Positions 369-45,575 of a stretch of 47,437 bases of DNA are shown piece by piece. This DNA is from a virus. Numbering within the stretch: position 1 is the stretch's first letter; each line of letters opens with the position of its first letter. The notes below the pieces were generated by a model. The model ran no database searches, was not told the DNA's origin, and saw nothing but the letters and a program-made list of their open reading frames with translations. The position numbers were made by a program, and so were the translations under genes. Location of the stretch: the IMG/VR virus record IMGVR_UViG_3300028454_000165; one strand, 5' to 3'.

Positions 369-1502
369 TTATATCGCTATTATTTCATTTACGACGGATT
401 GCACGTCTTCTTTTTCTTCTATAATGTGACTATACACATTCATAACCATTTTTTCAGTGTCCCCCAATAGGTAAGCTACCTTCTTTATACTGATAGTGGG
501 TACCTTATAACATAATTCGCTACAGTAGTTATGCCGGAAGATATGAGCAGTAAGACCGGTTATGACCGGGAACGCGTCAGATCCCCCTGCAGCTACATTC
601 ATTTTCTTTACAATGCTTTTCCACATCTTATTATATCCGGTTTTCGTCATAAGGTCCCCGCCCTGGATATTTGTCATCAGGTAAGGTTTGCTTAACCCTT
701 GCACGTACTCTTTCAAGAAACCAGCAACCGCATCAGGGATAGGTATTGTGCGAAAACCATTATCTGATTTCGGATTGTTCTTTACTTCCGGGGTGTTTTC
801 GTCAAAGATAATTGTCTTATTTATAGTGACCGTGGATTCGCCGGGAGCAAATTTGAAGTCAAAAGGCGTAAGTGCTAAAGCTTCGCCCCGCCGCAGACCG
901 CAGGCATAAAGCAGGTACACATAAGCCCTTTCGCGATCCGTAAAGGCAGCAGTCTTTATGGCTTCTTTTTCAATGTCCGTAAGTGCACGTCTTTCAGCAG
1001 CTTTATATTTTGGTATCGCAAGATCTGTCGTTATCTTTAAAAATGCGTCCTGGGTGATATAGGAATCCGAAACAGCCATACGAAGGACCTGCTTTGCAGT
1101 CATGGCTATTTGTTGACAGCTTCGGGGAGAATCAAGGCGGGAATTAATAAGGCCCTGCAGGTCGCTATGTTTAAAATCTGCCAGCCGTAGACCTTCCAGC
1201 GGGGCAAAATACGAATTAATAACGCGCCTATACATACGCTGCGTATTCTTTTCGCGCATACCCTTTTTAACCTTAAGCCAGTGCCGGGAATAGTCCAAAA
1301 ACGATATATCAGAGGGAAGCGCTACATTGCCTTCTCGGATATTTTGTGCGATAGCAGCAACCTTCAATTCAAGATCCCTTGATGATTTAGAGCTATAAAC
1401 GCTTTTCCGGTGCTTTGTGCCGTCGGCGTTATATGTGCCGTCCCATACACGGGCCTGCCATAATCCCTTACTATTCTGTTTATATTTTGTAGCCATACCC
1501 AC
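369..1502 (-). CDS. int: Tyrosine recombinase / phage integrase
   Basis: 377 aa. Contains CGLRRGEAL (catalytic Arg), HIFRHNY (H-x-x-R) and NVYSH (catalytic Tyr). Adjacent to the attP-like repeats. Confidence 0.9.
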   Translation of the reverse strand: MGMATKYKQNSKGLWQARVWDGTYNADGTKHRKSVYSSKSSRDLELKVAAIAQNIREGNVALPSDISFLDYSRHWLKVKKGMREKNTQRMYRRVINSYFAPLEGLRLADFKHSDLQGLINSRLDSPRSCQQIAMTAKQVLRMAVSDSYITQDAFLKITTDLAIPKYKAAERRALTDIEKEAIKTAAFTDRERAYVYLLYACGLRRGEALALTPFDFKFAPGESTVTINKTIIFDENTPEVKNNPKSDNGFRTIPIPDAVAGFLKEYVQGLSKPYLMTNIQGGDLMTKTGYNKMWKSIVKKMNVAAGGSDAFPVITGLTAHIFRHNYCSELCYKVPTISIKKVAYLLGDTEKMVMNVYSHIIEEKEDVQSVVNEIIAI

Positions 1503-8099: not shown

Positions 8100-8478
8100 G
8101 ACAAAAGACTTTATTTCTTACGCCGTAGATTTCGACGGCACATTATCCATAAACAAACAATTCCCGGAGATCGGGGACGCAAATGTATTTCTTTTTGATT
8201 TTCTTATTGATGAGAGGAAAAAGGGAAACAAGGTTATTTTATATACCTGCAGGTCAGGCCAGCTCCTGGATAACGCCATAGCCTTCTGTATGGAAAGGGG
8301 CTTACACTTCGATGCGGTCAACGCAAACCTGCCGGAAAACATTGCGAAGTACGGCGGCGATACAAGAAAGATCCACGCAGATTATTACATCGATGATCGG
8401 ATGCTTTATTTTCCGTCCGTGGGATTTCACTGTATAGATCTTCGCCCACTGGTAAATAAGGAAACGGCAACGGCTTAG
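8092..8478 (+). CDS. HAD-superfamily-like hydrolase (hypothetical)
   Basis: AVDFDGTL matches HAD motif I (DxDGT). YIDDR is near the C-terminus. Confidence 0.4.
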   Translation: MNETKDFISYAVDFDGTLSINKQFPEIGDANVFLFDFLIDERKKGNKVILYTCRSGQLLDNAIAFCMERGLHFDAVNANLPENIAKYGGDTRKIHADYYIDDRMLYFPSVGFHCIDLRPLVNKETATA

Positions 8479-8491
8479 AGGAGGATTTGAT

Positions 8492-8782
8492 ATGGAAGGT
8501 GTATTTGACAGAAAAGAATATATGAGGACGGATGCCGCCAAGGTCTTAAAAAACGCAGCGGAAACAATTCAGGAGCTTAGTGATATTAACGCCCGGATAT
8601 TAGATATAAACACTTTACTCCATAAAAGATTAAAGGAGAATATGAAGTCTTGCAATAGAATTACACAAGCGGCTATTTATTTCAGCGAAACATACGACCG
8701 TATGACACCTTCGCAGAAAAAGGAATTTGACCGGATAGGTTTGCAGGTAATAAATGACTGTGATTTGTATTTAATGAAGTAG
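8492..8782 (+). CDS. Hypothetical protein
   Basis: 96-aa ORF with GGAGGA RBS. Confidence 0.5.
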   Translation: MEGVFDRKEYMRTDAAKVLKNAAETIQELSDINARILDINTLLHKRLKENMKSCNRITQAAIYFSETYDRMTPSQKKEFDRIGLQVINDCDLYLMK

Positions 8783-8803
8783 GGATTGAAAGAAGGGGAA
8801 GTT

Positions 8804-9283
8804 ATGTTTGATAAGTTTGGAAATATGACAACAGAGGAATTAAATCTTGCGGCAGCAGGCCTAAAGGAAGAGGGAGATATATCATCCCTAAAGGCCCTTG
8901 CCCTTGAGAACGGCCTCGACGAGATGGACGCTGAGGATTACGCAGACGGACTTATAGAAGAACTTGCATCACCGCTCATGGCAGCCTTAGGAAAGCTGAA
9001 AGTGGAAGAGGAGGCTCTAAGACCCCAGGGGATCCTTAATGACTGGATAGGATATGTCCGCTTCCAGGTATCACAGAATCCCGATATGCAGGTTAAGGTC
9101 AGAAAAAAGAACAAGACCCTTGTGGGGTGCATCGGCAAGATCCTTTCCTGGGCTTTTAAAAATCAATGGACAGTGCCGGCAGAAATCGTAAAGGCAGCAG
9201 GCGTAAACGCATCAAAAGTCACACTTGGCGAACCTGATATGAGACAGGCCAAGCAGATTATAAGTGAATATTACGGAGGGTAG
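8804..9283 (+). CDS. Hypothetical protein, possibly PcfK-like
   Basis: Sits directly upstream of the PcfJ-like gene. The resemblance to PcfK is weak and from memory only. Confidence 0.3.
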   Translation: MFDKFGNMTTEELNLAAAGLKEEGDISSLKALALENGLDEMDAEDYADGLIEELASPLMAALGKLKVEEEALRPQGILNDWIGYVRFQVSQNPDMQVKVRKKNKTLVGCIGKILSWAFKNQWTVPAEIVKAAGVNASKVTLGEPDMRQAKQIISEYYGG

Positions 9284-9285
9284 CC

Positions 9286-10902
9286 ATGGACAATATTGAT
9301 TTAAAGCCCGTTAAAGGGATTGAAGCCTGGGCTAGGAAACAGTTCAAGGACAATCATTTTGTGTACTACACCCGTAAAGGAGCTTACGCTGAGTGCCACT
9401 GTGCAGAATGCGGAGCGAGATATGTTCTGCGAGCCCTGCCAACTGAAGATCCTTTTCAGGATGCAGCGATGGATATTGAAAAACCGGAAAGGGATGCAAA
9501 GACCTTCTGCAGGAAGTGCAAGACCAAGGCTATCTATAAACCGGCCGGACACACAAGGAGCGAATATGCCTTATGCAGGATAGTTTTTGGTCAGAAGATA
9601 GATGATGAGCATTTTGTTTTCAGGGCTTTTTATGCAGATCAGCATACACGGCAAGCCTGCGATACGGTCTATAGATGCCAAGAAGATGAACGGATATTCC
9701 TCGAAAAAGGCAAAAAGCCTTCAAGGTATGATCACTATGCGTATTATTCAAATGACGCATGGTATGATACGAAGACATGGTATCCAAGAACAACTGGTGA
9801 GAACTGGCGTTATCTTGTACACCCAAGGACATACAAGGAAATCGCAAAGACCGGCATGTTTAAGTATGTTCCTGTAGAGAAGTCGATAATGAATCACTAT
9901 TACGATGAATGCGGACTAATCGATTACTACATAGCAGCTGCACGATATCCGGATTTTGAGATGATACTTAAGGCAGGGCTTATTGAATACGCCGACAATC
10001 TGGTCAGAAAGATTCCCGTCAATCCGAATCCGAGAGGAAAGAACATAGAAGACCGTCTCAGGATTAACAAGAACAGGATAAAGAGTCTGATTGCATATAA
10101 AGGCACAAAGCAAGTCCTTGAAATGTATCAGCTCGAAAGAAGACTCGGAAAACACTGGAACGACGAAGAACTTGAAATAATCAAAGAACTCCGGGATAAC
10201 ACATACTCTACAGACTGGGAGAAAGCATCAAAAGTCCTTAAACACATATCCCCGATCCGCTTAAGGAACTACATGAAAAAACAAAAGATGTGGATGCCGG
10301 GAAAAATAGCTGATTGGAGAGAAAGAAATCGTCGCCAGGATCTAAGAAGAGAGTATTACGACTACATCTCCATGAGAATAAACGAAGGTTACGACATGAC
10401 AAACGATGTTATTCTCTTCCCCACAGACTTCAGAAGACGCAGAGACGAGATGCTCTTAATGGTCGAGAAGGCCAAGATGGACAAGAGAAAGACAGAAGTG
10501 CTTGAGAAATTCCCAAAGATTAAGTCGAAGTACAAGAAACTCTCTGAAAAGTACTCTGCAGCAGCAGGTGGATACATCATCCGACCGGCGAAAGATGCAG
10601 CTGAGATTGTAGAAGAAGGCAGAATATTACATCACTGTGTCGGAGGAGACGGATATTTACGCAGCCACAACGACGGAAGAAGCTTCATCCTCTTCCTGAG
10701 AAAGGCAGACAAGAAAGATATTCCGCTTATAACAATCGAGATCAGAGGTGAAGAAATAATCCAGTGGTACGGAGCCTATGACAAAAAGCCAAACAAAAGC
10801 ATTATAGACGCCTGGCTGAAGACCTACACCAAGGAACTAAAACAGAGAAAAGCCGGCAAGAAAGCAGTCAAAGAAGCGGTTAAAGCCGTGAAAACAGCAT
10901 AG
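9286..10902 (+). CDS. PcfJ-like protein with N-terminal zinc ribbons
   Basis: C-terminal LHHCVGGDGYLRSHNDGRSFILFLR...ITIEI...WYG is the PcfJ signature. N-terminal CAECG and CRKCK. Confidence 0.65.
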   Translation: MDNIDLKPVKGIEAWARKQFKDNHFVYYTRKGAYAECHCAECGARYVLRALPTEDPFQDAAMDIEKPERDAKTFCRKCKTKAIYKPAGHTRSEYALCRIVFGQKIDDEHFVFRAFYADQHTRQACDTVYRCQEDERIFLEKGKKPSRYDHYAYYSNDAWYDTKTWYPRTTGENWRYLVHPRTYKEIAKTGMFKYVPVEKSIMNHYYDECGLIDYYIAAARYPDFEMILKAGLIEYADNLVRKIPVNPNPRGKNIEDRLRINKNRIKSLIAYKGTKQVLEMYQLERRLGKHWNDEELEIIKELRDNTYSTDWEKASKVLKHISPIRLRNYMKKQKMWMPGKIADWRERNRRQDLRREYYDYISMRINEGYDMTNDVILFPTDFRRRRDEMLLMVEKAKMDKRKTEVLEKFPKIKSKYKKLSEKYSAAAGGYIIRPAKDAAEIVEEGRILHHCVGGDGYLRSHNDGRSFILFLRKADKKDIPLITIEIRGEEIIQWYGAYDKKPNKSIIDAWLKTYTKELKQRKAGKKAVKEAVKAVKTA

Positions 10903-10917
10903 AGGGAGGGAAAATAC

Positions 10918-12153
10918 ATGTATGAAATAACGGGACAGCCCTTTGAGAGCTATCAGCAGTTCAAGGCGACCATGGACCAGACGGTCAATTCCACCGTCCA
11001 GAACATCGTCAAGATCGGGTACCTCTTAAAGGTCGCAAGAGACACCGGCATCCTTCAGGAGTCCGGATACACAACAATGAGAGACTTTGCACAGGCGGAA
11101 TACAATATTGACGCCTCCACGGCTTCAAGGTTTATCGGCATAAATGATAAGTATTCCATGGGTGGTAATTCCATGGAACTTGATGATAAATATAAAGGAT
11201 TTGAGGCCAGCAAGCTTGTAGAAATGCTTACTCTTCCGGATTCCATCATCGAGGAGATCCCACCGGAAATGAAAAGGGACGAGATTAGGGAGATAAAGAA
11301 CCAGCTGAAGGAGGAGCAAAAGACCTCTGATTTGGAAATGTATATAGAGAGTACCGCCACCATAGAAGCCACCTGTTCAGACCTTACCGAAGTATTAAAA
11401 CAGTCGTTAGAAGAGAGTTTCGAACTGTTTAAAGAGGCTGACCGCCGCATATGTGACACCGAAAACCTCAATAATTCTGCTGAAAGCCTGTATTCTGCAC
11501 TGGCGCCGGCCGGTTATGCAACTCTGATCGGGCGGATCCCCGGAAAAGGGAGAGTGATGTTATCCATCGCAAGCCAGAGCGAGGATCCTGCACTTATAAA
11601 TGCCCGCACAGGCGAAAAAGAAAGGATCACGTGGAGGCAGATCTTTGACGAGCTGGACCAATTAATCAAGCACCCAAATGACAAATCAGATCCTGAAGTA
11701 GATTACGCAGCGACATTTGGCCACGAGCCAAAGAAGGAGGAAGAGAAGGAAGAAAAGAAGCCTTCCGCAGTGACCGTATCGAAAGAAGCAAAGCCCAAAA
11801 CAGATAAAAAAGCCGAAAAAAAGCCCAAGAAGCCTGAAAAAACAAAGCAGGCGTCTCCGGAACCGAAAGAGGAGAAAGAAGAGTCAGAAAAGACAGAAGA
11901 GGCAGCAGGAGAAGAGGAGCCCAAAGAACCCACCACGGCAGCAGGCACAGAAGAGAAAATTGCGCCGGCGCAATCTGAAGAGGAAACAATAGAAGTTCCC
12001 AAGGAGTTAACCTCATTCCAGAAGCAGATCATCGATAAGCTTGAGACAATCAAGATTGTAGTTAGAAGCATGGAACCGGATAAAGATAACTGGGACCATA
12101 TTTGTGACATGCTCAGAGAAACGCAGATACTCATAAACAAAACAATCTTCTAG
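10918..12153 (+). CDS. DUF3102-like DNA-binding protein with a Lys/Glu-rich low-complexity region
   Basis: The N-terminus IVKIGYLLKVARDTGILQESGYTTMRDFAQAEYNIDASTASRFIGI resembles DUF3102/KilA-type HTH. An EEKEEKKP-type tract is present. Confidence 0.4.
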   Translation: MYEITGQPFESYQQFKATMDQTVNSTVQNIVKIGYLLKVARDTGILQESGYTTMRDFAQAEYNIDASTASRFIGINDKYSMGGNSMELDDKYKGFEASKLVEMLTLPDSIIEEIPPEMKRDEIREIKNQLKEEQKTSDLEMYIESTATIEATCSDLTEVLKQSLEESFELFKEADRRICDTENLNNSAESLYSALAPAGYATLIGRIPGKGRVMLSIASQSEDPALINARTGEKERITWRQIFDELDQLIKHPNDKSDPEVDYAATFGHEPKKEEEKEEKKPSAVTVSKEAKPKTDKKAEKKPKKPEKTKQASPEPKEEKEESEKTEEAAGEEEPKEPTTAAGTEEKIAPAQSEEETIEVPKELTSFQKQIIDKLETIKIVVRSMEPDKDNWDHICDMLRETQILINKTIF

Positions 12154-15445: not shown

Positions 15446-15931
15446 TTGACCAGAACGGGAGCAGAGAACGTAATTATTTATTATTCAAACATCCCGGAGA
15501 TGCTCAAATATGAGCACCAGGAAGTTGACCAGATCGAGGCGACATACTACAGCGGATTAAAAGCTGTGTCAGCTGATGGGATGCCGCATGGATCATCCGT
15601 GGGAAGACCGACAGAGAGGGACGGCCTTAAAGCTGCGGAAAATGATGCGCACGCACGCCTTGAAAAGGCGAAGATCCGTATTAAAACTTTAGAGGGAGAC
15701 TGGGAGATAATTGACCGTGCGATCAACTCCATGAATGGTAGGTACAAAACTATTCTTGTGGGAAAGTATTTACGTGGGTACAGCTATGTTAAAATATCGA
15801 CCGATCTGAACGCCGGAGAAAGTACCATTCGCTGGTGGCTTAAAAAGGCCCTGGAACGCTTCGGTGAAATCCTCGAAAATGATGTTGTTATGATCGAGGA
15901 AATGGAAGAACGAGCTTCGCGCGCGCGTTAA
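15446..15931 (+). CDS. Sigma-70 region-4-like / ArpU-RinA-type late transcription regulator
   Basis: TTG start after GGAGGTG. ILVGKYLRGYSYVKISTDLNAGESTIRWWLKKALERF is region-4 HTH-like. Confidence 0.5.
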   Translation: MTRTGAENVIIYYSNIPEMLKYEHQEVDQIEATYYSGLKAVSADGMPHGSSVGRPTERDGLKAAENDAHARLEKAKIRIKTLEGDWEIIDRAINSMNGRYKTILVGKYLRGYSYVKISTDLNAGESTIRWWLKKALERFGEILENDVVMIEEMEERASRAR

Positions 15932-16595: not shown

Positions 16596-16679
16596 GCTCC
16601 AAGCCTCCTTTTTTGCTAAAAGTTTTTGTTATACAAAAAAGCTAATACGGTCTAACCACCTACCGTAAGGGATTATCAA

Positions 16680-17489
16680 CTAAGCGTTAAGGATATATTC
16701 GCAAGCCTTTTCCGCCTGGATCGAAGCGTAAACAATCATCTTAGGATCATCTTTCAGAACGCTCAGCCAGCTCTGCAAATAAGCCACATTATTGCGAAGC
16801 GTTGTTTCGGATGATAAACCACAAGTGGATGATAAGAAACAGGATCCGATCTCGGCGACAAGCTCCTCTTTGGAATACTCTTCGTTGCCGAAAGCAGCCT
16901 TTTTGTCGCTCTTGCGATTGCACCTTGTCTCTTTTCCGGTGCTGTGTGTCAGCTCGTGGAATAAGGTGCCGTAATACTCGTTGATCCCGATAAACTGCTC
17001 GGGCTTCGGAACTACAACCAAGTCCCTGGCTAGCATATAGTAAGCCTCATTACTGGGCTTTATTTCGAGCTTAGGAGCGTCAGCGGATTCGATGTATTTT
17101 TTTACGATAGCTTCAGCACTCTCGATAAGCTCTACTTCGTTTTGTATCTCTTCAGGCTTAACCTCAACGGGCTGTGTCCAGTCGTGCTTCGGCTTTAATC
17201 CTGTAACCTGTGTAAGGATATTGAACACCCTGTAATATCTCAAAGCGAAAGTCTTTTTGTAAATCTCTTCGCCATCATCGTCAAGAACTGCCTTGCCGTT
17301 TTTATCAAGAACTTTTTTGTCCTCTACTATCCAGCCACAAACAACATGAGACTTTTCGCCCTTGATAACCTGTCCGCCATCCTTTTTGATTTGTGCGAAA
17401 GTGGCATACTCGCCAGCCTCGAAGTCAAGGAGCATTTGATTTATAAGGTCATAACGCTTCCCAGTTGAGTAGGAAAAGCAAGGAAACAT
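16680..17489 (-). CDS. ardC: ArdC-like antirestriction protein, main reading frame (ssDNA-binding region plus zincin HExxH domain)
   Basis: TGKRYDLINQMLL, FHELTHSTG (HExxH) and KEELVAEIG are typical of ArdC. The N-terminal conserved segment lies in another frame (see 17441-17602). Confidence 0.7.
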   Translation of the reverse strand: MFPCFSYSTGKRYDLINQMLLDFEAGEYATFAQIKKDGGQVIKGEKSHVVCGWIVEDKKVLDKNGKAVLDDDGEEIYKKTFALRYYRVFNILTQVTGLKPKHDWTQPVEVKPEEIQNEVELIESAEAIVKKYIESADAPKLEIKPSNEAYYMLARDLVVVPKPEQFIGINEYYGTLFHELTHSTGKETRCNRKSDKKAAFGNEEYSKEELVAEIGSCFLSSTCGLSSETTLRNNVAYLQSWLSVLKDDPKMIVYASIQAEKACEYILNA

Positions 17490-17602
17490 TTGTGCATACC
17501 GCTGAAAGAAGCGGAAGCGTTATTCCAAGGCTTAACCCAAGGGATTCTACCCTCATTCATTTTGTTAATAATTTGTTCTGTGATAATCTCGTAGCTTGTC
17601 AT
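17441..17602 (-). pseudogene. ardC: N-terminal ArdC segment in a separate frame; apparent -1 frame break relative to 16680-17489
   Basis: AGGAGGG RBS 8 nt upstream of the ATG at 17602. Encodes MTSYEIITEQIINKMNEGRIPWVKPW... (ArdC N-terminal PW..PW motif) and stops at 17441-17443. Confidence 0.6.
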
Positions 17603-17637
17603 AATTGAAACCCTCCTAAGAATTTTGTTTCACCTTT

Positions 17638-17707
17638 AGCCTGTCTCATCAGTACGGGTAGGCCATCTCCCGTAGACACTCCCCGAAGTGGGGAGTGTTT
17701 CGACCTA
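17638..17707 (-). ncRNA. Candidate type II hammerhead self-cleaving ribozyme
   Basis: Minus-strand RNA reads GUC-GAA-[ACACUCCCC-ACUUC-GGGGAGUGU]-C / [UACGGG-AGAUGGCCUA-CCCGUA]-CUGAUGA-GAC. All core nucleotides, a GUC cleavage triplet and three stems are present. Confidence 0.65.
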
Positions 17708-18544
17708 TACGATTGTTAATTCCGTACCGTTGTAGCGGTAAACTGAATTGCTTAAGAAGTCCTGTTCAGCTACTTCGGTCTCGTTAATCTCACGAACCAT
17801 CGGAGCGAAAGCGGAAGCCTCGGGAGTGTCAGCGATAACGATTACCTCATGAACACTACTCGGGAAAACTATGAAAGTTTCAAGCCCCAACTTCTCGGAT
17901 ACTTCAGCGAGTAAAGCCTTATCTGTTACAATCGAAGCACCGTACAAGCCAGTCTTATTAGAGATAATCCACATCGGCACTACATCCGCACTTTTCTCGA
18001 AGTTCTCATCGAATAAGCAGTAAATCTGATTAAGATAATCAAAGATGCTTCTTACTGTCATTCCCTTGCGGTCAGCCTTTGCATTTTCCCTCAACTCTTC
18101 GAGAGTGATTCCGAGATAATCAAGGTGGTTATTGTTCAACTTAATCGTTGCATTTTCCAAGTTGCCACCCAGCTCGGTAAGGTCCAGCTCATAGATGATT
18201 GCAAGGTCAAGAAAATCAGTGTGCGGTGAGCTTTCAAGTAACTTAGTGTTACGCTCTTTACTGATAAGGACTGGTATTACATTGTCGAGAACGAAGCTCT
18301 TAGTTAATACCTTTGAGAAGTCAATGTCTAACTTCTCGGAAGTCCTAAAGAGTGATACCATCATCTCGATGTTTTCCTCTTCGCTCCTATCGTCCTGATA
18401 GTAAACGGTAGGTGATAAGTTGCTACCGTCATGGAGTACGAAAGCTCTCTTTACTACTCCGTTGTTCTTGGTAACCGTTGTCTCTTCAACTGTTACTCCA
18501 TTGCCGATAAGTTCCTCAATTCTTTTTGCGATAACTCTTTCCAT
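17705..18544 (-). CDS. DUF5688-like protein (family often found next to ArdC in Firmicutes mobile elements)
   Basis: Start trimmed to MERVIAKRIEEL, preceded by AAGGAGGA. The promoter lies inside the longer ORF-track extension. Confidence 0.5.
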   Translation of the reverse strand: MERVIAKRIEELIGNGVTVEETTVTKNNGVVKRAFVLHDGSNLSPTVYYQDDRSEEENIEMMVSLFRTSEKLDIDFSKVLTKSFVLDNVIPVLISKERNTKLLESSPHTDFLDLAIIYELDLTELGGNLENATIKLNNNHLDYLGITLEELRENAKADRKGMTVRSIFDYLNQIYCLFDENFEKSADVVPMWIISNKTGLYGASIVTDKALLAEVSEKLGLETFIVFPSSVHEVIVIADTPEASAFAPMVREINETEVAEQDFLSNSVYRYNGTELTIV

Positions 18545-18597
18545 TTGGTTATCCTCCTTGTGTGTATTGTCAACGGGTTGCCCCCCGTTGCAAGAAC

Positions 18598-18627
18598 AAT
18601 ATACAACGACGGGTAACACCCTGTCAA
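18598..18627 (-). promoter_or_regulatory. Sigma-70-type promoter of the minus-strand island
   Basis: Minus strand has TTGACA (18622-18627), an 18-nt spacer and TATATT (18598-18603), with an A/T-rich UP-like tract upstream. Confidence 0.5.
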
Positions 18628-18886
18628 GTACTTTTCTAAAATTTTTTTCAAAAAGTTTTTTGAGACAATCCGAAAAGCCATATTTATCAAGGCTTTGATG
18701 TGTGAAAAAATTCTGTAGAAAATCTGTATCAGACACAAAACACCGAGACAGGACACCTTAACAACTTATCACATACATTATTAAGAAAATAAATCCGCAT
18801 AAGTGTGCTTTGATAAGAACAAAGCAGACAGATAAAAGCCCATAGCCTGGCAATAGAAATAATTATTCTAATAGACTGACAAAGAC

Positions 18887-19044
18887 AGCCTTATTTATCC
18901 CCATACATTTAGCGAGATAATCTTTATAGAATAATCAATTATCATTTCCTATGAGTATTCTTTATTCAATCATCCAATAGATAGAAAATAAATCAGCCCT
19001 ACTTATTCCCATACATTCTACATAAAAAATCCTATAGAAAAGAC
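18887..19044. repeat. Two imperfect ~50-bp direct repeats 108 bp apart in an AT-rich noncoding region
   Basis: AGCCTTATTTATCCCCATACATT... (18887-18936) versus AGCCCTACTTATTCCCATACATT... (18995-19044). Each is followed by TATAGAA. Confidence 0.6.
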
Positions 19045-19087
19045 CTATACAAAAACAAAGCCAGGGCAGGACAGGGGGCAGGAACTA

Positions 19088-19140
19088 CCGCCTACACCCA
19101 CCCACACCCACACCCACACCCCACACCCACACCCCACAAC
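19088..19140. repeat. C/A-rich microsatellite-like tract (CCCACA-type); G-quadruplex-prone on the minus strand
   Basis: cctacacccacccacacccacacccacaccccacacccacaccccac: seven C3-4 runs separated by 1-3 nt. Confidence 0.8.
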
Positions 19141-19330
19141 AACACAAAAACAAAAGCCCCACAAGCCCACAAATAAGCAAGATCAGCAGCCACCGGACCG
19201 GCGGCAAGGTACTGCCGGGACAGCTCTCTGGGATGCGGGTTCGGAAGCGCAATTTTTGGCTAGGTATATAGTAAAATTTCCATTTCCGGCTGGCCCGGGC
19301 AGAAAAAAGAAGGGGGGTCAAAAAAAGAGG

Positions 19331-19359
19331 TTGCACCCCGTAAAGGGATGGTGTATAAT
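19331..19359 (+). promoter_or_regulatory. Near-consensus sigma-70 promoter
   Basis: TTGCAC (19331-19336), 17-nt spacer, TATAAT (19354-19359). Confidence 0.6.
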
Positions 19360-19401
19360 CATGGCAACCAGAAAGAGGATCACCGGAAGGAGTAAACCAC
19401 A

Positions 19402-19629
19402 ATGGCAATGACAGAGAAGAAGCGCAAGACAGATTATGCCTGGCAGAAGAAGAACTATAAGCGTGTAGGAACGAAGCTTTATAGAGGAGATGCGGAAGCC
19501 TTCGAGGAATGGTGCCGGGAGCATAACACAAGTGTGAACGCCGCCCTGAAGGAGTATGTATCTCAATGTTTAGGACGTCCGCTGGAAAAGCGGAGTGAGA
19601 ACAAGGAGGCAAAGGACAATGAAGAGTAG
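19402..19629 (+). CDS. Ribbon-helix-helix-like small protein
   Basis: GGAAGGAG RBS. KRVGTKLYRGDAEAFEEWCREHNTSVNAALKEYV fits the RHH beta-alpha-alpha pattern. Confidence 0.45.
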   Translation: MAMTEKKRKTDYAWQKKNYKRVGTKLYRGDAEAFEEWCREHNTSVNAALKEYVSQCLGRPLEKRSENKEAKDNEE

Positions 19630-19750
19630 AATAATGGCAGCGGGCATGAGCCTCATGATCATCCTGGAATTAACCGGGTGCGGATCCGGCGCCGGGCAGC
19701 AGGCAACGAATGCAAAAGAGAAAATTGCGCCGGCGCAATCCTCAATATAA
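19619..19750 (+). CDS. Small lipoprotein (43 aa)
   Basis: AAGGAGG RBS. MKSRIMAAGMSLMIILELTGC has lipobox L-T-G-C. Not in the ORF track because of its length. Confidence 0.5.
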   Translation: MKSRIMAAGMSLMIILELTGCGSGAGQQATNAKEKIAPAQSSI

Positions 19751-19909
19751 AGCCATTTTTGACAGCGTAGTGAAGTAAAAATAAAAAATTTTTTAAAAAA
19801 ATTTTTAGCATTAGCAGTTTCTGCGGATTTTTTGTGTTATTTTGATATTGTGAGTAAATGCCCGTGAAGATGATTCGCGGGCTTTGTTATACACAAAAGG
19901 AGGGCTTAT

Positions 19910-20689
19910 ATGCCTAAGCGAGATCCGCAGAGAGATAATGCTAAAGCTGAATATATAGCCCGAAGAACAAAGGGCAAGGTCAACTTAAAGGACCTGGCGG
20001 AGCAGCTGGGAGTATCCTATCAGACCTTGCGGAACTGGAAAACCAAAGATAAATGGGAAGACGCACTTCCGAAGAGAAAGCGCGGAGGCCAGCCGGGCAA
20101 TAAGAACTGTAAGGGAAAGAAGAATGCCAAAGGGCACCATGAGGGAGCACCCAAGGGGAATAAGAACGCAGAGAAGGACGGAGCATACAGCACCATCTTT
20201 TTTGATATGTTAACGGATGCCGAGAAGGAGCTGGCAGAGAAGACCCCGATTGGGAGCAAGGAAGCACTTACCCATGAATTGCAGATACTAAAGCTCCGGG
20301 AGCACAAGATCTTAGAGAAGATCGCAATGTACGAAGCTGCCGAAGAAGATACCCTTTACATAAACAGCCTTACCGATATGAGGGTACCGGGAGGCAAAGG
20401 GAATGCCAGGAAAGACGGAGCGATCCAGACAATGGGTATGTACAACAAAGATTCTGCATTTGCCAGGATAGATAAATTGCAGGAAGCTTTGTACAAGGTT
20501 CAAGGCAGGATCGCCACCATCATTAATGGACTTAGGGCCATTGAAGAGAGCGAGCAGAGGATCAAGCTGGATAAGAAGCGGTTAGAGATCCTCGAAATGA
20601 AAGCGACCGGTGCTATCGAGGTACCGGATCCTGACGGCGGCGTAGATGTGGATGATATAGACGATGAAGATGATATGGGTGATGTATAG
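19910..20689 (+). CDS. Terminase small-subunit-like protein (YjcR/HTH type)
   Basis: N-terminal HTH LKDLAEQLGVSYQTLRNWKTKDKW, then repeated GxPxGNKNxxK motifs typical of this TerS-like family. Confidence 0.6.
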   Translation: MPKRDPQRDNAKAEYIARRTKGKVNLKDLAEQLGVSYQTLRNWKTKDKWEDALPKRKRGGQPGNKNCKGKKNAKGHHEGAPKGNKNAEKDGAYSTIFFDMLTDAEKELAEKTPIGSKEALTHELQILKLREHKILEKIAMYEAAEEDTLYINSLTDMRVPGGKGNARKDGAIQTMGMYNKDSAFARIDKLQEALYKVQGRIATIINGLRAIEESEQRIKLDKKRLEILEMKATGAIEVPDPDGGVDVDDIDDEDDMGDV

Positions 20690-21178
20690 ATGAAGCTATA
20701 TACGAGCAAAACCGTATCTCAATGGCTGGGACTGACAGAGAGAAGAATTAGACAGCTCCGGGACGAGGGAATCATAGACGAAGCCCGCCCGGGACTTTAC
20801 GACTTAAAGCCTACGGTGCTGCGATACATCAAGTATTTAGGCGGCGCCGGAAGAGAGAGCCTGCAAACGGAACGAATGAAGCTGACAGCTGAGAAGCGCA
20901 AAGCCGCCGAGATGGATAACGAGGTCCGGCGAGGGGAGCTTCACAGCACGGAGGACATCGAAACAGGAATAAAGACCATGTGCTTAAATATCCGGGGAAG
21001 GTTCCTTGCGATGCCGGCCAAGCTATCACCGGCGCTGGCGGCAGCAGGCGGCAATCAGGCTGAGATATTCGATATATTAAAAGCCGCGATCAATGAGGCA
21101 CTGGAAGAGATCAGCGATTACCGTGTCGCATTAGCCTTAAACGGTGATGATGAGGATGAAGAAAAACAGGACAGTTAA
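20690..21178 (+). CDS. terS: Nu1-like terminase small subunit
   Basis: N-terminal wHTH TVSQWLGLTERRIRQLRDEGII...YDL...VLRYIKYL resembles lambda Nu1. Lies directly upstream of the GpA-type TerL. Confidence 0.6.
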   Translation: MKLYTSKTVSQWLGLTERRIRQLRDEGIIDEARPGLYDLKPTVLRYIKYLGGAGRESLQTERMKLTAEKRKAAEMDNEVRRGELHSTEDIETGIKTMCLNIRGRFLAMPAKLSPALAAAGGNQAEIFDILKAAINEALEEISDYRVALALNGDDEDEEKQDS

Positions 21179-22985
21179 GTTAGATGAATCGACAGTTGAT
21201 ATGTTGGCAAGGTGCATATCGGTTTTAAAGCCGCCCCCGGAAATGACATTATCACAGTGGGCGGATGCTTACCGGGTGTTATCTGCGGAGAGCAGTGCGG
21301 AACCGGGAAGATGGCACACCGACAAAGCCCCGTATCAGCGGGAGATCATGGACGCTATAGGAGATGCCAGGACAAGGCGAGTAGTTATCATGTGCGCAGC
21401 GCAGCTGGGTAAAACGGAACTATTGCTGAATATCCTGGCTTACTTTATGGCATATAATCCGGCCCCGATCCTTGTAATGCAACCTACCCTTGACATGGGG
21501 CAGACATTCAGTAAGGACCGGCTGGCGCCGATGATAAGAGATACTCCGGCGCTCCGGGGCCTAGTTGATGTTAAAAGCCGGTATTCCGGGAACACGATAA
21601 TGAAAAAGAACTTCCCCGGCGGCCACGTTACCATAGTTGGAGCAAACAGCGCAGCGGGATTAGCCAGCAGACCCATAAAGGTATTACTTGCCGACGAGGT
21701 AGACCGTTACCCGGAGAGCGCAGGATCAGAGGGCGACCCCCTATCACTGGCACAGAAAAGGCAGACTACCTTCTGGGATAAAAAAACGGTTATGGTATCA
21801 ACCCCGGTACTAAAGGGATATAGCCGTATAGAGACAGAGTTTAACCAAAGCACCAGGGAAGAGTGGAATGTGCCATGTCCCATATGCGGACACTTACAGC
21901 CCCTTGCATGGGCGAATGTGGTATTTGATTCATCAGATCCTACGATAGACCCGACATACCGCTGCGAGAGATGCGGAAAGGAATCCGGAGAATACGCATG
22001 GAAAGCCCAGGGCATAAACGGTAAATTTGTAGCCGAAAACCCGGATGCAGAAACAAGGGGATTTCACTTAAATACATTAGCTTCCACCTTTTGCGGGTGG
22101 AAGGAAATAGTACAGAAGTTTTTAGTAGCCAAAGAACAGATGGACCAGGGCAACCCGGAAGGTATGAAGGTTTGGGTAAATACAGAACTGGGTGAGACTT
22201 GGGAAGAACGCGGCGACACCGTAGAAGACGTAGAGCTTTTCAATCGGCGCGAGATCTACGATGCAGAAGTGCCGGATGGCGTAATAGCGCTTACGGCCGG
22301 TGTAGACGTACAGGATGATAGATTTGAAGTAGAAGTAGTCGGATGGGGAATAGGAAAAGAAAACTGGGGCATACGGTACCAGAAGATATATGGCGACCTG
22401 CTTAAAGAACAAGTATGGCAGGATCTTGACAATTTCCTGCTCACCGGATTTCAGAAGAAAGACGGGACCACGCTACACATACTATCAACCTGTATTGATT
22501 CCGGCGGACACTTCACGGATGCCGTATATAGGTTTACTAAGGACAGAATAGACCGCAGGGTATGGGCGGTCAAAGGCAAGGGCGGTCAGGACGTGCCATT
22601 CATCCGAAATCCGAGTACGAACAACAGGACTAAGACACCGTTATTCATCCTCGGAGTAGATGCAGGCAAGGCTTTGCTGTATCAGAGGTTGCGGCATAGT
22701 ACAAAAGGACCCAACTACTGTCACTTCCCGGAGAACGAAGAAGCCGGATATGACGCAGCTTATTTTAAAGGGCTGACATCAGAAAAGATGGTAGTGCGCT
22801 TTAAGAAGGGCCGAAGCGTTATCGTATGGGAACTCAAAGACAGCTCATTTAAGAGAAACGAGCCGCTTGATCTTAGAAATTATGCAATGGCGGCATTAGA
22901 GATAGCAAACCCGGTACTTACCAATGCGGAACCGGGAGTACAGAAGGTACACAGAGGTCGTAGAGTAGTAAGCGGAGGTATTTAA
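21144..22985 (+). CDS. terL: Terminase large subunit, lambda GpA family (start uncertain, 21144-21156)
   Basis: 613 aa. Walker A-like CAAQLGKT, LLADEVD, zinc ribbon CPICG...CERCG. Synteny Nu1-A-W-portal. Confidence 0.85.
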   Translation: MMMRMKKNRTVKLDESTVDMLARCISVLKPPPEMTLSQWADAYRVLSAESSAEPGRWHTDKAPYQREIMDAIGDARTRRVVIMCAAQLGKTELLLNILAYFMAYNPAPILVMQPTLDMGQTFSKDRLAPMIRDTPALRGLVDVKSRYSGNTIMKKNFPGGHVTIVGANSAAGLASRPIKVLLADEVDRYPESAGSEGDPLSLAQKRQTTFWDKKTVMVSTPVLKGYSRIETEFNQSTREEWNVPCPICGHLQPLAWANVVFDSSDPTIDPTYRCERCGKESGEYAWKAQGINGKFVAENPDAETRGFHLNTLASTFCGWKEIVQKFLVAKEQMDQGNPEGMKVWVNTELGETWEERGDTVEDVELFNRREIYDAEVPDGVIALTAGVDVQDDRFEVEVVGWGIGKENWGIRYQKIYGDLLKEQVWQDLDNFLLTGFQKKDGTTLHILSTCIDSGGHFTDAVYRFTKDRIDRRVWAVKGKGGQDVPFIRNPSTNNRTKTPLFILGVDAGKALLYQRLRHSTKGPNYCHFPENEEAGYDAAYFKGLTSEKMVVRFKKGRSVIVWELKDSSFKRNEPLDLRNYAMAALEIANPVLTNAEPGVQKVHRGRRVVSGGI

Positions 22986-41453: not shown

Positions 41454-42749
41454 ATGAGCGATAAAATATATGTTGCGGATAAGCCTACGCTGGATTCCGT
41501 TAACGAGAAAGTATCAGCTATCCTTGCTATCGAGAAGGACGAGGATGTATACGGTTTCGTGGAGCATATGGACATACTTGATCCTGACGAGAGGATTGAA
41601 TATATCGGGCTTAACAAGAACTTTAACCCCATTACTATTACCATGGGCGGCGGCTATTCCCTGGGTGACTGGGCGACATTCCCGCTGCTGGTTAACAACA
41701 AGCCCTACATGGTTAAGAGCAGCGGTATTGTAGATTACCAGCTTTCCGAGACGAACTATTCAAAGAAAGCCGACGGAGAGACAGCATCAGATGTGGCAAA
41801 TACTTCTTACGACGGCGGTGCTTTCTCATGGTTGCAGAAGATCTACAAGAAGGAATACATTGTTGGATCAGACAGATATGTTAAGTTTTCGCTGGAGCCG
41901 AGAGATGGTTACGAGGCAGCAGGATTCATTGACGATACCAACAACGAACTTGAAGGAGTATGGATTCCGATGTTCTATGGAGCTTCCAACGGAGCTTCAC
42001 AGAATCCGAAGATGCTGACTGTCTCCGGGACACAGCCGGTACATAGCCAGACGACGGCCCAGGAGAAAACCTTAATTGATAATTTCGCCGCCCGGGGTAA
42101 ATTCTTTGGCGGAGCAATAATCAATACCATCCACGACCTGCTTCTTCTTTGGGGCAAGACATCTAATATCCAGGACAAATATGGCTATGGCAACTGCAAC
42201 GGCTATGACAGCACGTTATCTCCTACATATGGAGTGCTTGCTAATGCTATAGTGGGCGGCGGACAGTTTTACGGTACCGGCGCAGACGATAAGAAGCACT
42301 TAAATAAGATTTTGCACTCTATCGTATTAGGTAGCTATCAGCAGTGGATGCGCGATCCTTATACAGCCTGCGTAAGCGGAAAGGTATATGTAAGCAAGAA
42401 TTACAAATATGATATCTCAACACCGGCCAATACATACAAAAACACCGGTGTAGTATTTGCAGAGACATTAAGCGGCGTATATCCGCATAAATACGCAGTA
42501 GAACCCGGATTCGGAAAGATCCCCGTTGTACCATGTGAAGGAACATCAGCAACCGGCGGTTGTGACGGTTTTTGGGTAAATCCCGGTATAACGGCCGTGG
42601 CCGGTCGGTTCGGTTCTTGCTCCCTTGACCTCTTTTGCGGCACGGGCGCGTTGACTTTGAACGGCACTGCCACGGACGCGACCTGGAGCATCGGCGCCGC
42701 CGTTCTTCTCTTACCACCTGCCGGCACAACGCCTAGCGTTGCGGCGTAG
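41454..42749 (+). CDS. Distal tail fibre / receptor-binding protein; DGR target with C-terminal variable region
   Basis: 431 aa. The C-terminus GRFGSCSLDLFCGTGALTLNGTATDATWSIGAA aligns to the TR-encoded NCNNDLICGTGALNLNNTATNANWNIGAA. Confidence 0.8.
   Translation: MSDKIYVADKPTLDSVNEKVSAILAIEKDEDVYGFVEHMDILDPDERIEYIGLNKNFNPITITMGGGYSLGDWATFPLLVNNKPYMVKSSGIVDYQLSETNYSKKADGETASDVANTSYDGGAFSWLQKIYKKEYIVGSDRYVKFSLEPRDGYEAAGFIDDTNNELEGVWIPMFYGASNGASQNPKMLTVSGTQPVHSQTTAQEKTLIDNFAARGKFFGGAIINTIHDLLLLWGKTSNIQDKYGYGNCNGYDSTLSPTYGVLANAIVGGGQFYGTGADDKKHLNKILHSIVLGSYQQWMRDPYTACVSGKVYVSKNYKYDISTPANTYKNTGVVFAETLSGVYPHKYAVEPGFGKIPVVPCEGTSATGGCDGFWVNPGITAVAGRFGSCSLDLFCGTGALTLNGTATDATWSIGAAVLLLPPAGTTPSVAA
42593..42709 (+). 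repeat. DGR variable repeat (VR)
   Basis: 117 bp aligned without gaps to 42826-42942. There are 16 differences, 15 of them at TR adenines. Confidence 0.85.
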
Positions 42750-42754
42750 GGGGT

Positions 42755-42772
42755 GTGGGGGTCTTCCCCCAC
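42755..42772 (+). promoter_or_regulatory. GC-rich hairpin just 3' of VR
   Basis: GTGGGGG-tctt-CCCCCAC, a 7-bp stem with a 4-nt loop, starting 6 nt after the target stop codon. Confidence 0.6.
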
Positions 42773-42825
42773 GGTGACTTTATGTAGCGGGAAATTAACA
42801 GGGGATGAGACTGCGACACCTCCGG

Positions 42826-42942
42826 GGCCGTGGCCATTCGGTTCGGTAATTGCAACAATGACCTCATTTGCGGCACGGGCGCGTTGAATTTGAACAACAC
42901 TGCCACGAACGCGAACTGGAACATCGGCGCCGCCGTTATTCT
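42826..42942 (+). repeat. DGR template repeat (TR)
   Basis: Adenine-containing master copy. AAY codons in the VR frame. Noncoding; the ORF-track entry 42830-43069 is spurious. Confidence 0.85.
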
Positions 42943-43130
42943 ATCAATAATAGATTACAGACCAAAATGCAGATTTCATTCATATACACCGCTGGACGTT
43001 GAAATACGTCTTATCCGCCGTCTATCGGTTAGGGGAGTGGTAATTATACCGATACAGGACACACGGTAAAGCGGTCGCACCTGCCGTGTGTAGGAGATAG
43101 AAGAAAAAAATATCTTATAGGAGTAATACG
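42943..43130 (+). ncRNA. Structured TR-RT spacer (probable 3' part of the DGR template RNA)
   Basis: Hairpins GACGT-N6-ACGTC, TATCGGT-N18-ACCGATA and ACACACGG-N16-CCGTGTGT. Confidence 0.45.
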
Positions 43131-44330
43131 ATGCGCAACCAAATGATGTGGGGCCTGTATAAAGCCCACCGTGGCGCAAAGCAGTACAAATATCTGTATC
43201 AGCGTATGCTGGACCGGGATGTTATCCGCCGGGCATACAAGAAGTTACGTAAAGGCAAGACCAAAAGAAGAGAGATCATAGCCATAGACGCTAACTTCGA
43301 CGCAGAAGTTGAAGCTATGCGGGAGATGATACTTAACACAAAGCCTCCGGGTGTGGAAGTAGAACACCCGGAGTTAGCTTATAAGCCACATAAGAGAAAA
43401 CCCAAGATTATATTTGAGCATAACAAGGCAAGAAAGATATATATGCCGGAGATACATGAGCAGTGGCTACATCATATAATCGTGCTGGTTTTAGAGCCTA
43501 TTATAGTCCGCACTTCCTATCAGTTTTCTTGCGGCAGCTTCCCGAACCGGGGAGCGCACAAAGCAAAACGACAGCTTGAACGCTGGATAAGGGCGGGTAA
43601 GGGTATAAGATACTTCGCCAAGATCGACATAAGGCACTTTTATGACAGCATCCGCCTTCGGGTCCTGATAAAAGAACTCTCTATCAGGATAAAGGACGAA
43701 TGGTTTTTATATATCATAGAGCTATGCCTTAAGGGATTTAAGAAGGGAATACCATTAGGATTCTATATAAGCCAGTGGTTAGCGAACTACCTGCTTGAAC
43801 CGCTCGATTATTTTATTACGGAAACACTGGGCTTTAAGAAAATGATCCGGTACATGGACGACATTGCGTTTATGGGAGACAACAAAAAGAAACTCCATGC
43901 GGCCATTATCGAGATAAAGAAGTTTATAGGCCGGCGATTCCGATTGAAACTTAAGAGAACGTTCATAGTTGCTAAATTTATATATCACACAAAAACCGGG
44001 CGGACGATTGGCAGGAAAATAAACTACATGGGTTTTCTCTTTGACAGGGATAATACCACGGTTCGTAAATGTATAATGCTTCAAGCTACACGGCTTGCGG
44101 CAAGGTTATCCAGGAAGAAACAGAAGAACAAGCGCATTTATCATAAGCACGTATGTGCAATGGTAAGCTACATGGGCTGGTTTAACTGGACAGATTCATA
44201 TAACTGTTATCTGAAATGGATAAAGCCGTATGTGAATGTAGGGAAGCTTAAACGGATTATATCTAAATTAGACAGGAGGAAAGCAGAATATGAAAGCATG
44301 GAAAGAGGAACACTGTGCGCAGCGGCCTAA
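43131..44330 (+). CDS. DGR-type reverse transcriptase
   Basis: AKIDIRHFYDSI, GIPLGFYISQWLANYLL (SQ..AN, DGR hallmark), RYMDDIAFMGD (YxDD), NYMGFLF. Confidence 0.85.
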   Translation: MRNQMMWGLYKAHRGAKQYKYLYQRMLDRDVIRRAYKKLRKGKTKRREIIAIDANFDAEVEAMREMILNTKPPGVEVEHPELAYKPHKRKPKIIFEHNKARKIYMPEIHEQWLHHIIVLVLEPIIVRTSYQFSCGSFPNRGAHKAKRQLERWIRAGKGIRYFAKIDIRHFYDSIRLRVLIKELSIRIKDEWFLYIIELCLKGFKKGIPLGFYISQWLANYLLEPLDYFITETLGFKKMIRYMDDIAFMGDNKKKLHAAIIEIKKFIGRRFRLKLKRTFIVAKFIYHTKTGRTIGRKINYMGFLFDRDNTTVRKCIMLQATRLAARLSRKKQKNKRIYHKHVCAMVSYMGWFNWTDSYNCYLKWIKPYVNVGKLKRIISKLDRRKAEYESMERGTLCAAA

Positions 44331-45337: not shown

Positions 45338-45529
45338 ATGATTATTAAAGAAAGAATTGCCAAGTTGTTATCTGTTAAAAGTATCGTAACCATCGCATTG
45401 ACCGGAGTGTTTTGCTATCTGGCCATTACAGGAAAGATAGACGGAGCACAGTTTTTAGGAATATTTACGGTAGTAGTTGGTTTTTATTTTGGTACCCAGG
45501 CGACCAAGGAAACAAAAGAAAAGATATAA
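45338..45529 (+). CDS. Holin
   Basis: 63 aa. Two TM segments (IVTIALTGVFCYLAI, FLGIFTVVVGFYFG) and a charged C-terminus. Directly upstream of the endolysin. Confidence 0.65.
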   Translation: MIIKERIAKLLSVKSIVTIALTGVFCYLAITGKIDGAQFLGIFTVVVGFYFGTQATKETKEKI

Positions 45530-45534
45530 GATGA

Positions 45535-45563
45535 GGGAGGGAGATTGTTCCCTCCCCTATTTT
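45535..45563 (+). terminator. Terminator-like hairpin between holin and endolysin
   Basis: GGGAGGGA-gattgt-TCCCTCCC followed by CTATTTTA, immediately before the endolysin RBS. Confidence 0.4.
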
Positions 45564-45575
45564 AAGGAGAACACA

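Follow-up and report, generated by a model that had tools for sequence, protein, structure and literature searches.

Does the short spacer between two accessory genes of a gut phage encode a self-cleaving RNA and, if so, what would cleavage do to the transcript in which it lies? The spacer occurs in a 47,437-nt stretch of viral DNA analysed over its full length (IMG/VR record IMGVR_UViG_3300028454_000165; hereafter, the window), where it separates, on the minus strand, a gene for a DUF5688-family protein from a gene for an ArdC-like anti-restriction protein. From the stop codon of the former to the ATG of the latter, the spacer measures 102 nt (17704-17603), and not 97 nt as given in a preliminary description of this DNA. 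The match to Rfam family RF02276 and our reading of the sequence support the presence of a complete type II hammerhead ribozyme of 68 nt with a pseudoknot between loop I and the 3′ tail, which extends on the minus strand from the 5′ strand of stem II to the end of the pseudoknot tail (17637-17704). Perreault et al. (2011, PLoS Comput Biol 7:e1002031; PMC3088659) reported natural type II hammerheads with this pseudoknot and with a tendency to cluster in prophages.

The minus strand between 17707 and 17635 is composed, in its 5′ part, of TAG, GTC, GAA, ACACTCCCC-ACTTC-GGGGAGTGT and C and, in its 3′ part, of TACGGG-AGATGGCCTA-CCCGTA, CTGATGA, GAC and AGGCTAAA. The type II permutation can be read directly from this order, i.e., 5′-stem II-GAA-hairpin III-C17-hairpin I-CUGAUGA-stem II-3′, where stem II carries both ends. 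Stem II is open and 3 bp long: its 5′ strand GUC (17702-17704, positions 11.3-11.1), directly after the TAG, pairs with the 3′ strand GAC (17643-17645, positions 10.1-10.3), and the conserved G10.1:C11.1 pair corresponds to G17645:C17702. The core nucleotides G12-A13-A14 (GAA, 17699-17701) are followed by the stem III hairpin (17676-17698), in which 9 bp (17698-17690 with 17684-17676) enclose the 5-nt loop ACUUC. Its closing pair A15.1:U16.1 is A17698:U17676, and C17 of the GUC triplet (C17675) comes next. Under the hammerhead consensus for that triplet, the predicted scissile bond lies between C17 (17675) and U1.1 (17674), indeed 72 nt upstream of the ArdC ATG at 17602, as claimed beforehand. 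The stem I hairpin (17653-17674) has 6 bp, UACGGG/CCCGUA (17674-17669 with 17658-17653), and a 10-nt loop, AGAUGGCCUA; it is followed by the core stretch C3-U4-G5-A6-U7-G8-A9 (CUGAUGA, 17646-17652), found both in the sequence as read and by the Rfam model. Within loop I, the 5′ arm of the pseudoknot (UGGCCU, 17660-17665) is complementary to the 3′ arm (AGGCUA, 17637-17642) located immediately 3′ of stem II, at the place where the family is known to carry it (PMC3088659).

The preliminary description had located the core, stems I-III, C17 and the pseudoknot correctly on the minus strand. Its pairing of loop I with the 3′ tail stands, except that the pseudoknot comprises 6 bp (17665-17660 with 17642-17637), one pair more than it had counted, and the type II pseudoknot to which it refers is the one described in PMC3088659. 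Stems III and I are the minimum-free-energy hairpins of both an 81-nt and a 241-nt transcript. All sequence-level defining features of RF02276 are thus present, with the 11 conserved core nucleotides, the A15.1:U16.1 and G10.1:C11.1 pairs and the 6-bp pseudoknot in the correct order and spacing; catalysis at the locus is predicted.

Could such a motif have arisen by chance? The comparison with covariance models that had been proposed as a check returned Rfam Hammerhead_II (RF02276, clan CL00010) at 17705-17635 on the minus strand, with 48.6 bits against a gathering score of 37 and E = 4.8e-07 (the 47-kb window versus 4227 families), over model positions 1-66 of 66. This score equals or exceeds that of most other phage members scored with the same model (38-50 bits). 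A permissive Rfam scan of the window yielded no second ribozyme family match, even at E ≤ 1, and we rejected a second ribozyme or a circular-RNA arrangement on that ground. Taken without the helices, the core letters carry no significance: a single match to CGAAA..TH..CTGANGAG occurs in the window versus 0.23 matches expected, and 19 out of 100 shuffles contain at least one. Likewise, the folding energy of the 81-mer taken by itself is unremarkable (z = −1.56). The significance derives from the core, the helices and their spacing together.

The shuffles and the modest z-score are what would speak for a fortuitous match, in which case the GC-rich hairpins would be a terminator or attenuator, a cleavage site for RNase III or RNase Y or a protein-binding site. 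This is extremely improbable, and it is the only rival explanation that we consider essentially excluded: the covariance-model score lies above the curated threshold at the E-value given, and core, conserved pairs and pseudoknot would have to coincide in order and spacing. An intrinsic (Rho-independent) terminator was considered separately and rejected, as the nucleotides after stem III are CUACGGG and those after stem I are CUGAUGA, neither of which is a U-tract; in addition, a terminator scan of the minus strand gave no site within 17637-17704.

The family to which the locus belongs provides further evidence for the fold. We scanned IMG/VR with a pattern that specified the core and stem II only (GTCGAAAC-N-GTC-N-CTGATGAGAC) and obtained at least 120 stretches with at least 146 hammerhead copies, at least 140 of them distinct; those checked are recognised by Rfam as Hammerhead_II (38-50 bits). 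Thirty-three phage copies of compatible length, picked by core and length only, were aligned (alignment A2) with gaps only in loop III. G12-A14 is invariant in this alignment, albeit fixed by the search pattern. The proposed pairs are complementary in 94.4% of cells, versus 73.5% after shuffling of columns and 31-40% when the partners are slid by 1-3 columns, and both partners vary in 15 of the 21 pairs. None of 500 shuffles reached the covariation score of 0.535 (versus 0.144). All six pairs of stem I covary (99% of cells paired), as do five of the six pseudoknot pairs and four of the six shared pairs of stem III, the other two being fixed by the search pattern. A metagenome scan for the pseudoknot sequence of the window identified 55 further copies, in which stems I and III vary freely yet remain complementary. 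The helices are thus maintained by compensatory change across the family, which implies selection on the fold.

At the level of orthologues, the comparison is restricted to a single sequence. The sole close relative found is a Logan contig (L001), approximately 96% identical in DNA across the cassette, which keeps the hammerhead (46 bits with Rfam). One substitution falls within the motif, G17664 to A, by which a G-U pair of the pseudoknot becomes an A-U pair; the stems are unchanged. The compensatory changes anticipated for stems I and III are therefore found at the family level, among the 33 phage copies, and not in the one orthologue. No match to 16600-18800 was obtained in 50,697 GenBank phage records (blastn, distant mode), a single-protein search in IMG/VR gave no close relative of the DUF5688 protein, and the hammerhead sequence has no exact match in 185,579 species-representative genomes.

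What transcript would carry the ribozyme? The upstream cistron (17705-18544, minus strand) specifies a DUF5688-family protein (Pfam PF18941, E 2e-52), as had been stated. Its true start is probably the ATG at 18544, preceded by an AGGAGG Shine-Dalgarno sequence and giving 279 amino acids, the length also of a 97%-identical homologue (P0001). A literature search for DUF5688 gave nothing. Upstream of this gene, a consensus scan predicts a promoter-like site, TTGACA-18-TATATT (18598-18627, minus strand; 11 out of 12 matches), the putative start of a DUF5688-hammerhead-ArdC transcript. The downstream cistron (16680-17602, minus strand), with AGGAGG 9 nt upstream of its ATG (17612-17617, minus strand), encodes the ArdC-like protein, again in agreement with the earlier assignment (Pfam ArdcN and MPTase-PolyVal; PHROG "anti-restriction protein"); it combines an ArdcN domain with a zincin metallopeptidase domain. 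Its frame in the window is split into ORFs of 53 and 269 amino acids by a one-base shortfall in an A-run (17491-17489), which reads AAA in the window versus AAAA in L001, while L001 has an extra A at a different run. The preliminary description says nothing of this break in the frame. With one A restored, the repaired translation is an intact protein of 307 amino acids containing HELTH. The A-run differences are most simply assembly errors, or possibly independent decay. Programmed frameshifting was rejected because the window and L001 each differ by one A at different runs.

The minus-strand cassette thus reads DUF5688, hammerhead, ArdC and a 99-amino-acid ORF, and it is inserted between plus-strand regulatory genes and the packaging genes. 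Since the two flanking genes share one strand, with a promoter-like site only upstream of DUF5688 and no terminator-like site between them, they appear to be co-transcribed. The window as a whole is a complete temperate phage or prophage of approximately 47 kb from a gut Clostridia-type host. It includes an integrase (369-1502, minus strand), a sigma-like regulator (15446-15931), TerS (19910-20689), a further terminase-small-subunit-like ORF (20690-21178), a gpA-type TerL (21144-22985), a diversity-generating retroelement (near 41.4-44.3 kb) and an amidase/GH25 lysin (45477-47195). The TerL is 60-82% identical to those of prophages of Oscillospiraceae, Lachnospiraceae and other gut Clostridia. 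Helicase/methylase, PcfJ-like and Rep-like genes are also present.

Processing of polycistronic phage RNA has been proposed for type II hammerheads; those with the pseudoknot cleave at more than 1.2 per min in 0.5 mM Mg2+, and the pseudoknot is required, as shown in other members of the type by deletion and compensatory mutation (PMC3088659). We consider it likely, with good confidence, that the spacer holds a catalytically competent hammerhead that cleaves the DUF5688-ArdC mRNA so as to uncouple its cistrons. After transcription, stems III and I would fold as local hairpins and the 3-bp stem II would close the three-way junction, while the 6-bp pseudoknot would hold stems I and II parallel, allowing the core to work at cellular Mg2+. 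The 2′-OH of C17 (17675) would then attack its own 3′ phosphate, with G12 as the general base and the 2′-OH of G8 as the general acid of the accepted hammerhead mechanism, and the RNA would be cut, constitutively, between C17675 and U17674. The chemistry of hammerhead cleavage, which leaves 2′,3′-cyclic phosphate and 5′-OH ends, is established for the family, and it is by analogy that we infer self-cleavage at this bond.

As a consequence of the type II permutation, both products would be hairpin-ended. The DUF5688 mRNA would keep its stop codon, with its 3′ end 31 nt farther on, at the C>p that follows the 9-bp stem III; the mRNA for ArdC would begin with a 5′-OH flush in the stem I hairpin and retain its own Shine-Dalgarno sequence. 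The bicistronic mRNA would be split into separately stable and separately translated mRNAs. In Firmicutes, an mRNA with a 5′-OH end may become subject to decay by RNase J1, for which glmS in Bacillus is an example, whereas mRNAs that carry a hairpin at the 3′ end or flush with the 5′ end are usually protected. The cistrons, once uncoupled, would presumably each have an mRNA with a stability of its own, which may in turn affect the expression of ArdC and DUF5688.

The position of the element between the two genes is consistent with its relatives elsewhere. Among the matches listed, 130 of 146 phage copies have the end of an ORF of at least 50 codons no more than 40 nt ahead of their stem II, and for 97 of these 130 the offset between the end of the stop codon and stem II is −3 to +1 nt. 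The next start codon in the phage copies listed follows stem II at a median distance of 29 nt, usually behind a Shine-Dalgarno sequence. The order of stop codon, hammerhead, Shine-Dalgarno sequence and ATG is the family norm, and the window copy fits it, with a stop offset of 0 and a start codon 40 nt after stem II. Indeed, the TAG of the DUF5688 gene (17707-17705) abuts stem II, in line with the preliminary description, which placed the motif at the upstream stop codon.

This packing raises the question of whether cleavage may be gated, i.e., set by translation of the upstream gene or by another factor, and so tune the ratio of ArdC to DUF5688. Stem II, G12-A14 and half of stem III would lie beneath a ribosome terminating at the TAG, the same close juxtaposition recurs in the 97 phage copies among the matches listed, and regulated folding was raised as a possibility for the family in PMC3088659. 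Plain compaction of phage genomes would also give tight packing, however, and fast co-transcriptional cleavage could precede the first ribosome. Moreover, neither an alternative or competing fold nor a ligand-binding extension is evident in the folds of the 81-nt and 241-nt transcripts. We regard gating as quite improbable, and constitutive cleavage of the bicistronic mRNA remains the preferred reading.

If uncoupling serves these two genes, is the hammerhead a regular companion of either? We detected no hammerhead in 81 other DUF5688 loci (L002-L082, 434 kb) with a strict descriptor and with covariance model R1, nor an Rfam hammerhead match in the 20 of them scanned with Rfam, and the DUF5688-ArdC adjacency is absent from all 81. 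Sixteen ArdC loci (32-47% identity) gave neither an Rfam nor an R1 match, and none of the 55 metagenome copies (L244-L298) is near DUF5688 or ArdC by tblastn. The element as a general companion of DUF5688 (0/81) or of ArdC (0/16) was thus rejected, and neither gene needs it. Among 25 TerL-related prophages (60-82% identity), there is one R1 match, in L224, at the equivalent position, on the strand opposite to TerL and approximately 3.5 kb upstream of it. This copy is decayed, as GAAA is missing and CUGAUGA is changed to CCGAUGA, from which it follows that such elements can be lost without obvious harm. Three weak partial matches in L221 (13-18 bits) were dismissed as GC-rich hairpins. Given the patchy distribution across DUF5688, ArdC, TerL-related and metagenome loci, the hammerhead is a sporadic, lineage-specific occupant of accessory-gene spacers. 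The earlier statement that type II hammerheads occur mostly in Firmicutes is not borne out: according to the 2011 paper (PMC3088659), they are very common in bacteria and also occur in some archaea, and our pattern scans matched them in a wide range of contigs, viral as well as from environmental metagenomes.

Such a distribution is also what one would expect of an active but functionally neutral passenger, which cleaves and, through recombination or duplication, spreads or persists between accessory genes with no gain for the expression of DUF5688 or ArdC. It is missing from the DUF5688 and ArdC loci and from 23 of the 25 TerL-related prophages, and at the syntenic position in L224 it has decayed. 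Furthermore, among the matches listed, hammerheads are clustered in several contigs (up to seven copies in 3 kb in L118), and near-identical copies recur within single contigs (two in L095, three in L116 and seven in L118). The neighbouring genes of the phage copies listed are diverse and mostly encode small unannotated proteins. The intact core and the helices kept by compensatory change argue against neutrality, as they point to selection on the fold, and so does the placement, which in most copies is tightly constrained, stop-flush and shortly followed by a Shine-Dalgarno sequence. A third argument is that independent lineages repeatedly have anti-restriction genes beside the element, namely ArdA in L100 and L118 (and in PMC3088659) and ArdC in L187 and the window. 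On balance, we find a neutral element unlikely, if the least unlikely of the rival explanations, and continue to favour uncoupling of the cistrons.

The annotated neighbours invite a more specific suggestion. Among the matches listed, ArdA is found twice upstream and twice downstream of a hammerhead and ArdC once upstream, the latter in L187, where an ArdC homologue (32.5% identity) immediately precedes the ribozyme; DUF932, SSB, AAA_5 ATPases, RusA, a RecE-like exonuclease and a methyltransferase complete the annotated set. The cut could conceivably be part of a phage strategy for the expression of counter-defence, made directly behind the preceding stop codon and freeing an ArdC mRNA whose hairpin-flush 5′-OH end would determine stability or translation apart from the operon, perhaps gated by ribosomes, which would explain the recurrence of ArdA and ArdC other than by coincidence; we consider this doubtful. 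The biological role of bacterial and phage hammerheads was still listed as undetermined in a 2019 review (PMC6765202).

The locus is an ordinary new example of a curated and well-populated family described in 2011. Its value as a discovery is small, because the family, the pseudoknot, the prophage habitat and the adjacency to anti-restriction genes were all published then, and any Rfam-based annotation pipeline would label the element; what is new here is only the ArdC/DUF5688 neighbourhood, a matter of detail. In practical terms, the locus is a clean arrangement for probing the purpose of phage hammerheads: one ribozyme in an operon of two genes, whose promoter is predicted and whose ArdC product can be assayed. 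Two family-level observations may be worth statistical treatment: most phage copies are flush with a stop codon, and Ard-type genes recur as neighbours.

How does the locus compare with known systems? The glmS ribozyme is reportedly a self-cleaving bacterial mRNA element in which the 5′-OH product decides the fate of the downstream cistron. Located in a 5′ UTR, it depends on the cofactor GlcN6P and has a fold unrelated to that of the hammerhead, and it is a precedent only for a 5′-OH end that alters mRNA stability in Firmicutes. With the published type II hammerheads (RF02276; PMC3088659), the window copy shares the core, the permutation, the pseudoknot and the intergenic prophage context, and there is no structural difference. 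Stem II has 3 bp in the window and is commonly as short as two base pairs in the family (PMC3088659), and the 9-bp stem III of the window is comparatively long. The other phage copies, from IMG/VR (L083-L202) and from metagenomes (L244-L298), have the same core, the same GUC/GAC stem II, the same or a compensated pseudoknot and the same layout; their stems I and III differ by compensatory changes, their neighbours are unrelated, and some lie in tRNA arrays. Four of them (L113, L268, L287 and L150) have the GAGAUAGCCUACCC loop and the AGGCU tail in common with the window. The DUF5688/ArdC pair flanks no other copy retrieved.

In Desulfovibrio vulgaris, three type II copies (loc 1-3) yield 2′,3′-cP and 5′-OH ends in vivo (Olzog et al. 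2021, PMC8782182). They adjoin hypothetical and phage-like genes, while their host phylum and neighbours differ from those of the window; they are experimentally supported (PMC8782182), whereas the window copy is known from its sequence. Where hammerheads are clustered in prophages, cleavage of polycistronic RNAs has been demonstrated both in vitro and in E. coli, also for copies that flank ardA (PMC3088659): in a prophage of Agrobacterium tumefaciens, a triple hammerhead flanks that gene and its cleavage has been shown in both settings, and in Legionella, hammerheads lie immediately upstream of ardA (PMC3088659). The window has a single hammerhead in place of the Agrobacterium tumefaciens cluster, and its ArdC-like gene product, with an ssDNA-binding domain and a metalloprotease, is unrelated in sequence to ArdA. 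What the window shares with both bacteria is the arrangement: in a polycistron of a prophage, a self-cleaving hammerhead directly precedes an anti-restriction gene.

Across IMG/VR stretches recovered with a pattern scan for the core and stem II (L083-L202), the matches listed contain 146 hammerhead copies; the stop codon of the preceding gene ends between -3 and +1 nt from stem II in 97 of 130 phage copies. A frequent form of this adjoining stop codon among these matches is UAG, the G of which is shared by stem II, while the median distance from stem II to the next start codon is 29 nt. Such adjacency could reflect genome compaction, or it could reflect a functional link of translation termination to the folding of the ribozyme.

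A decayed type II hammerhead is present in L224 (897-958, minus strand), a related Eubacteriales prophage whose TerL is 77% identical to that of the window. It occupies the same relative place as the window copy, about 3.5 kb upstream of TerL and on the opposite strand, and its neighbours are unrelated hypothetical genes. Stem I, stem III and the pseudoknot (loop I paired with the tail directly 3′ of stem II) are intact; GAAA is gone and CUGAUGA has become CCGAUGA.

Copies belonging to the same pseudoknot subfamily as the window hammerhead were also identified within phage tRNA arrays, in four metagenome stretches (L250 532-596; L253 10538-10602; L265 1752-1816; L290 4216-4280). The order is in each case tRNA-Ile gene, hammerhead, a single nucleotide and tRNA-Gln gene, and this placement suggests a role in the processing of tRNA precursors in those phages.

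In the window, the ArdC-like gene is broken into two ORFs (53 aa and 269 aa), one A-run being a base short: positions 17489-17491 read AAA, versus AAAA in L001, a closely related Logan contig that keeps the hammerhead. L001 has an extra A of its own, in another run than the one shortened in the window, and the spacer carries a further A-run difference; these two lie at about window positions 17356 and 17626. The nine gaps that separate the two contigs over 2.9 kb suggest homopolymer assembly errors and disfavour programmed frameshifting.

The long stretch that separates the cassette from TerS (window 18760-19900) is rich in AT and apparently non-coding. A 24-nt repeat occurs twice in it (18886-18909 and 18994-19017), short CCCACA-type repeats stand in a row at 19091-19141, and AT palindromes are present near 19782-19807; the stretch may represent a cos/pac, origin or operator region. 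An ORF of 175 aa within it (19085-19612) is without a family match and may be spurious.

The window also harbours a diversity-generating retroelement (41454-44330). Its variable repeat (42593-42709), at the 3′ end of a gene for 431 aa, is 86% identical to the template repeat (42826-42942), with 15 of the 16 mismatches located at template adenines. The template repeat is separated from the reverse transcriptase gene (43131-44330) by an RT-4 RNA (42985-43102; RF03025, 113.7 bits).

Among the matches listed, phage contigs unrelated to one another repeatedly have anti-restriction genes next to type II hammerheads (L187 1587-2637; L118 9995-10726; L100 384-966). An ArdC homologue is directly upstream of a hammerhead in L187, and Pfam identifies ArdA twice among the upstream neighbours in these matches and twice among the downstream ones. 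Judging from blastp clustering, the ArdA genes concerned are likely L118 10092-10667, with hammerheads on either side, and L100 384-878, which has a hammerhead upstream of it. The viral contig L118 carries seven type II hammerheads within 3 kb (8402-11317), dividing nearly all the small genes there from one another, an extreme case of the hammerhead clustering described in 2011 (PMC3088659).
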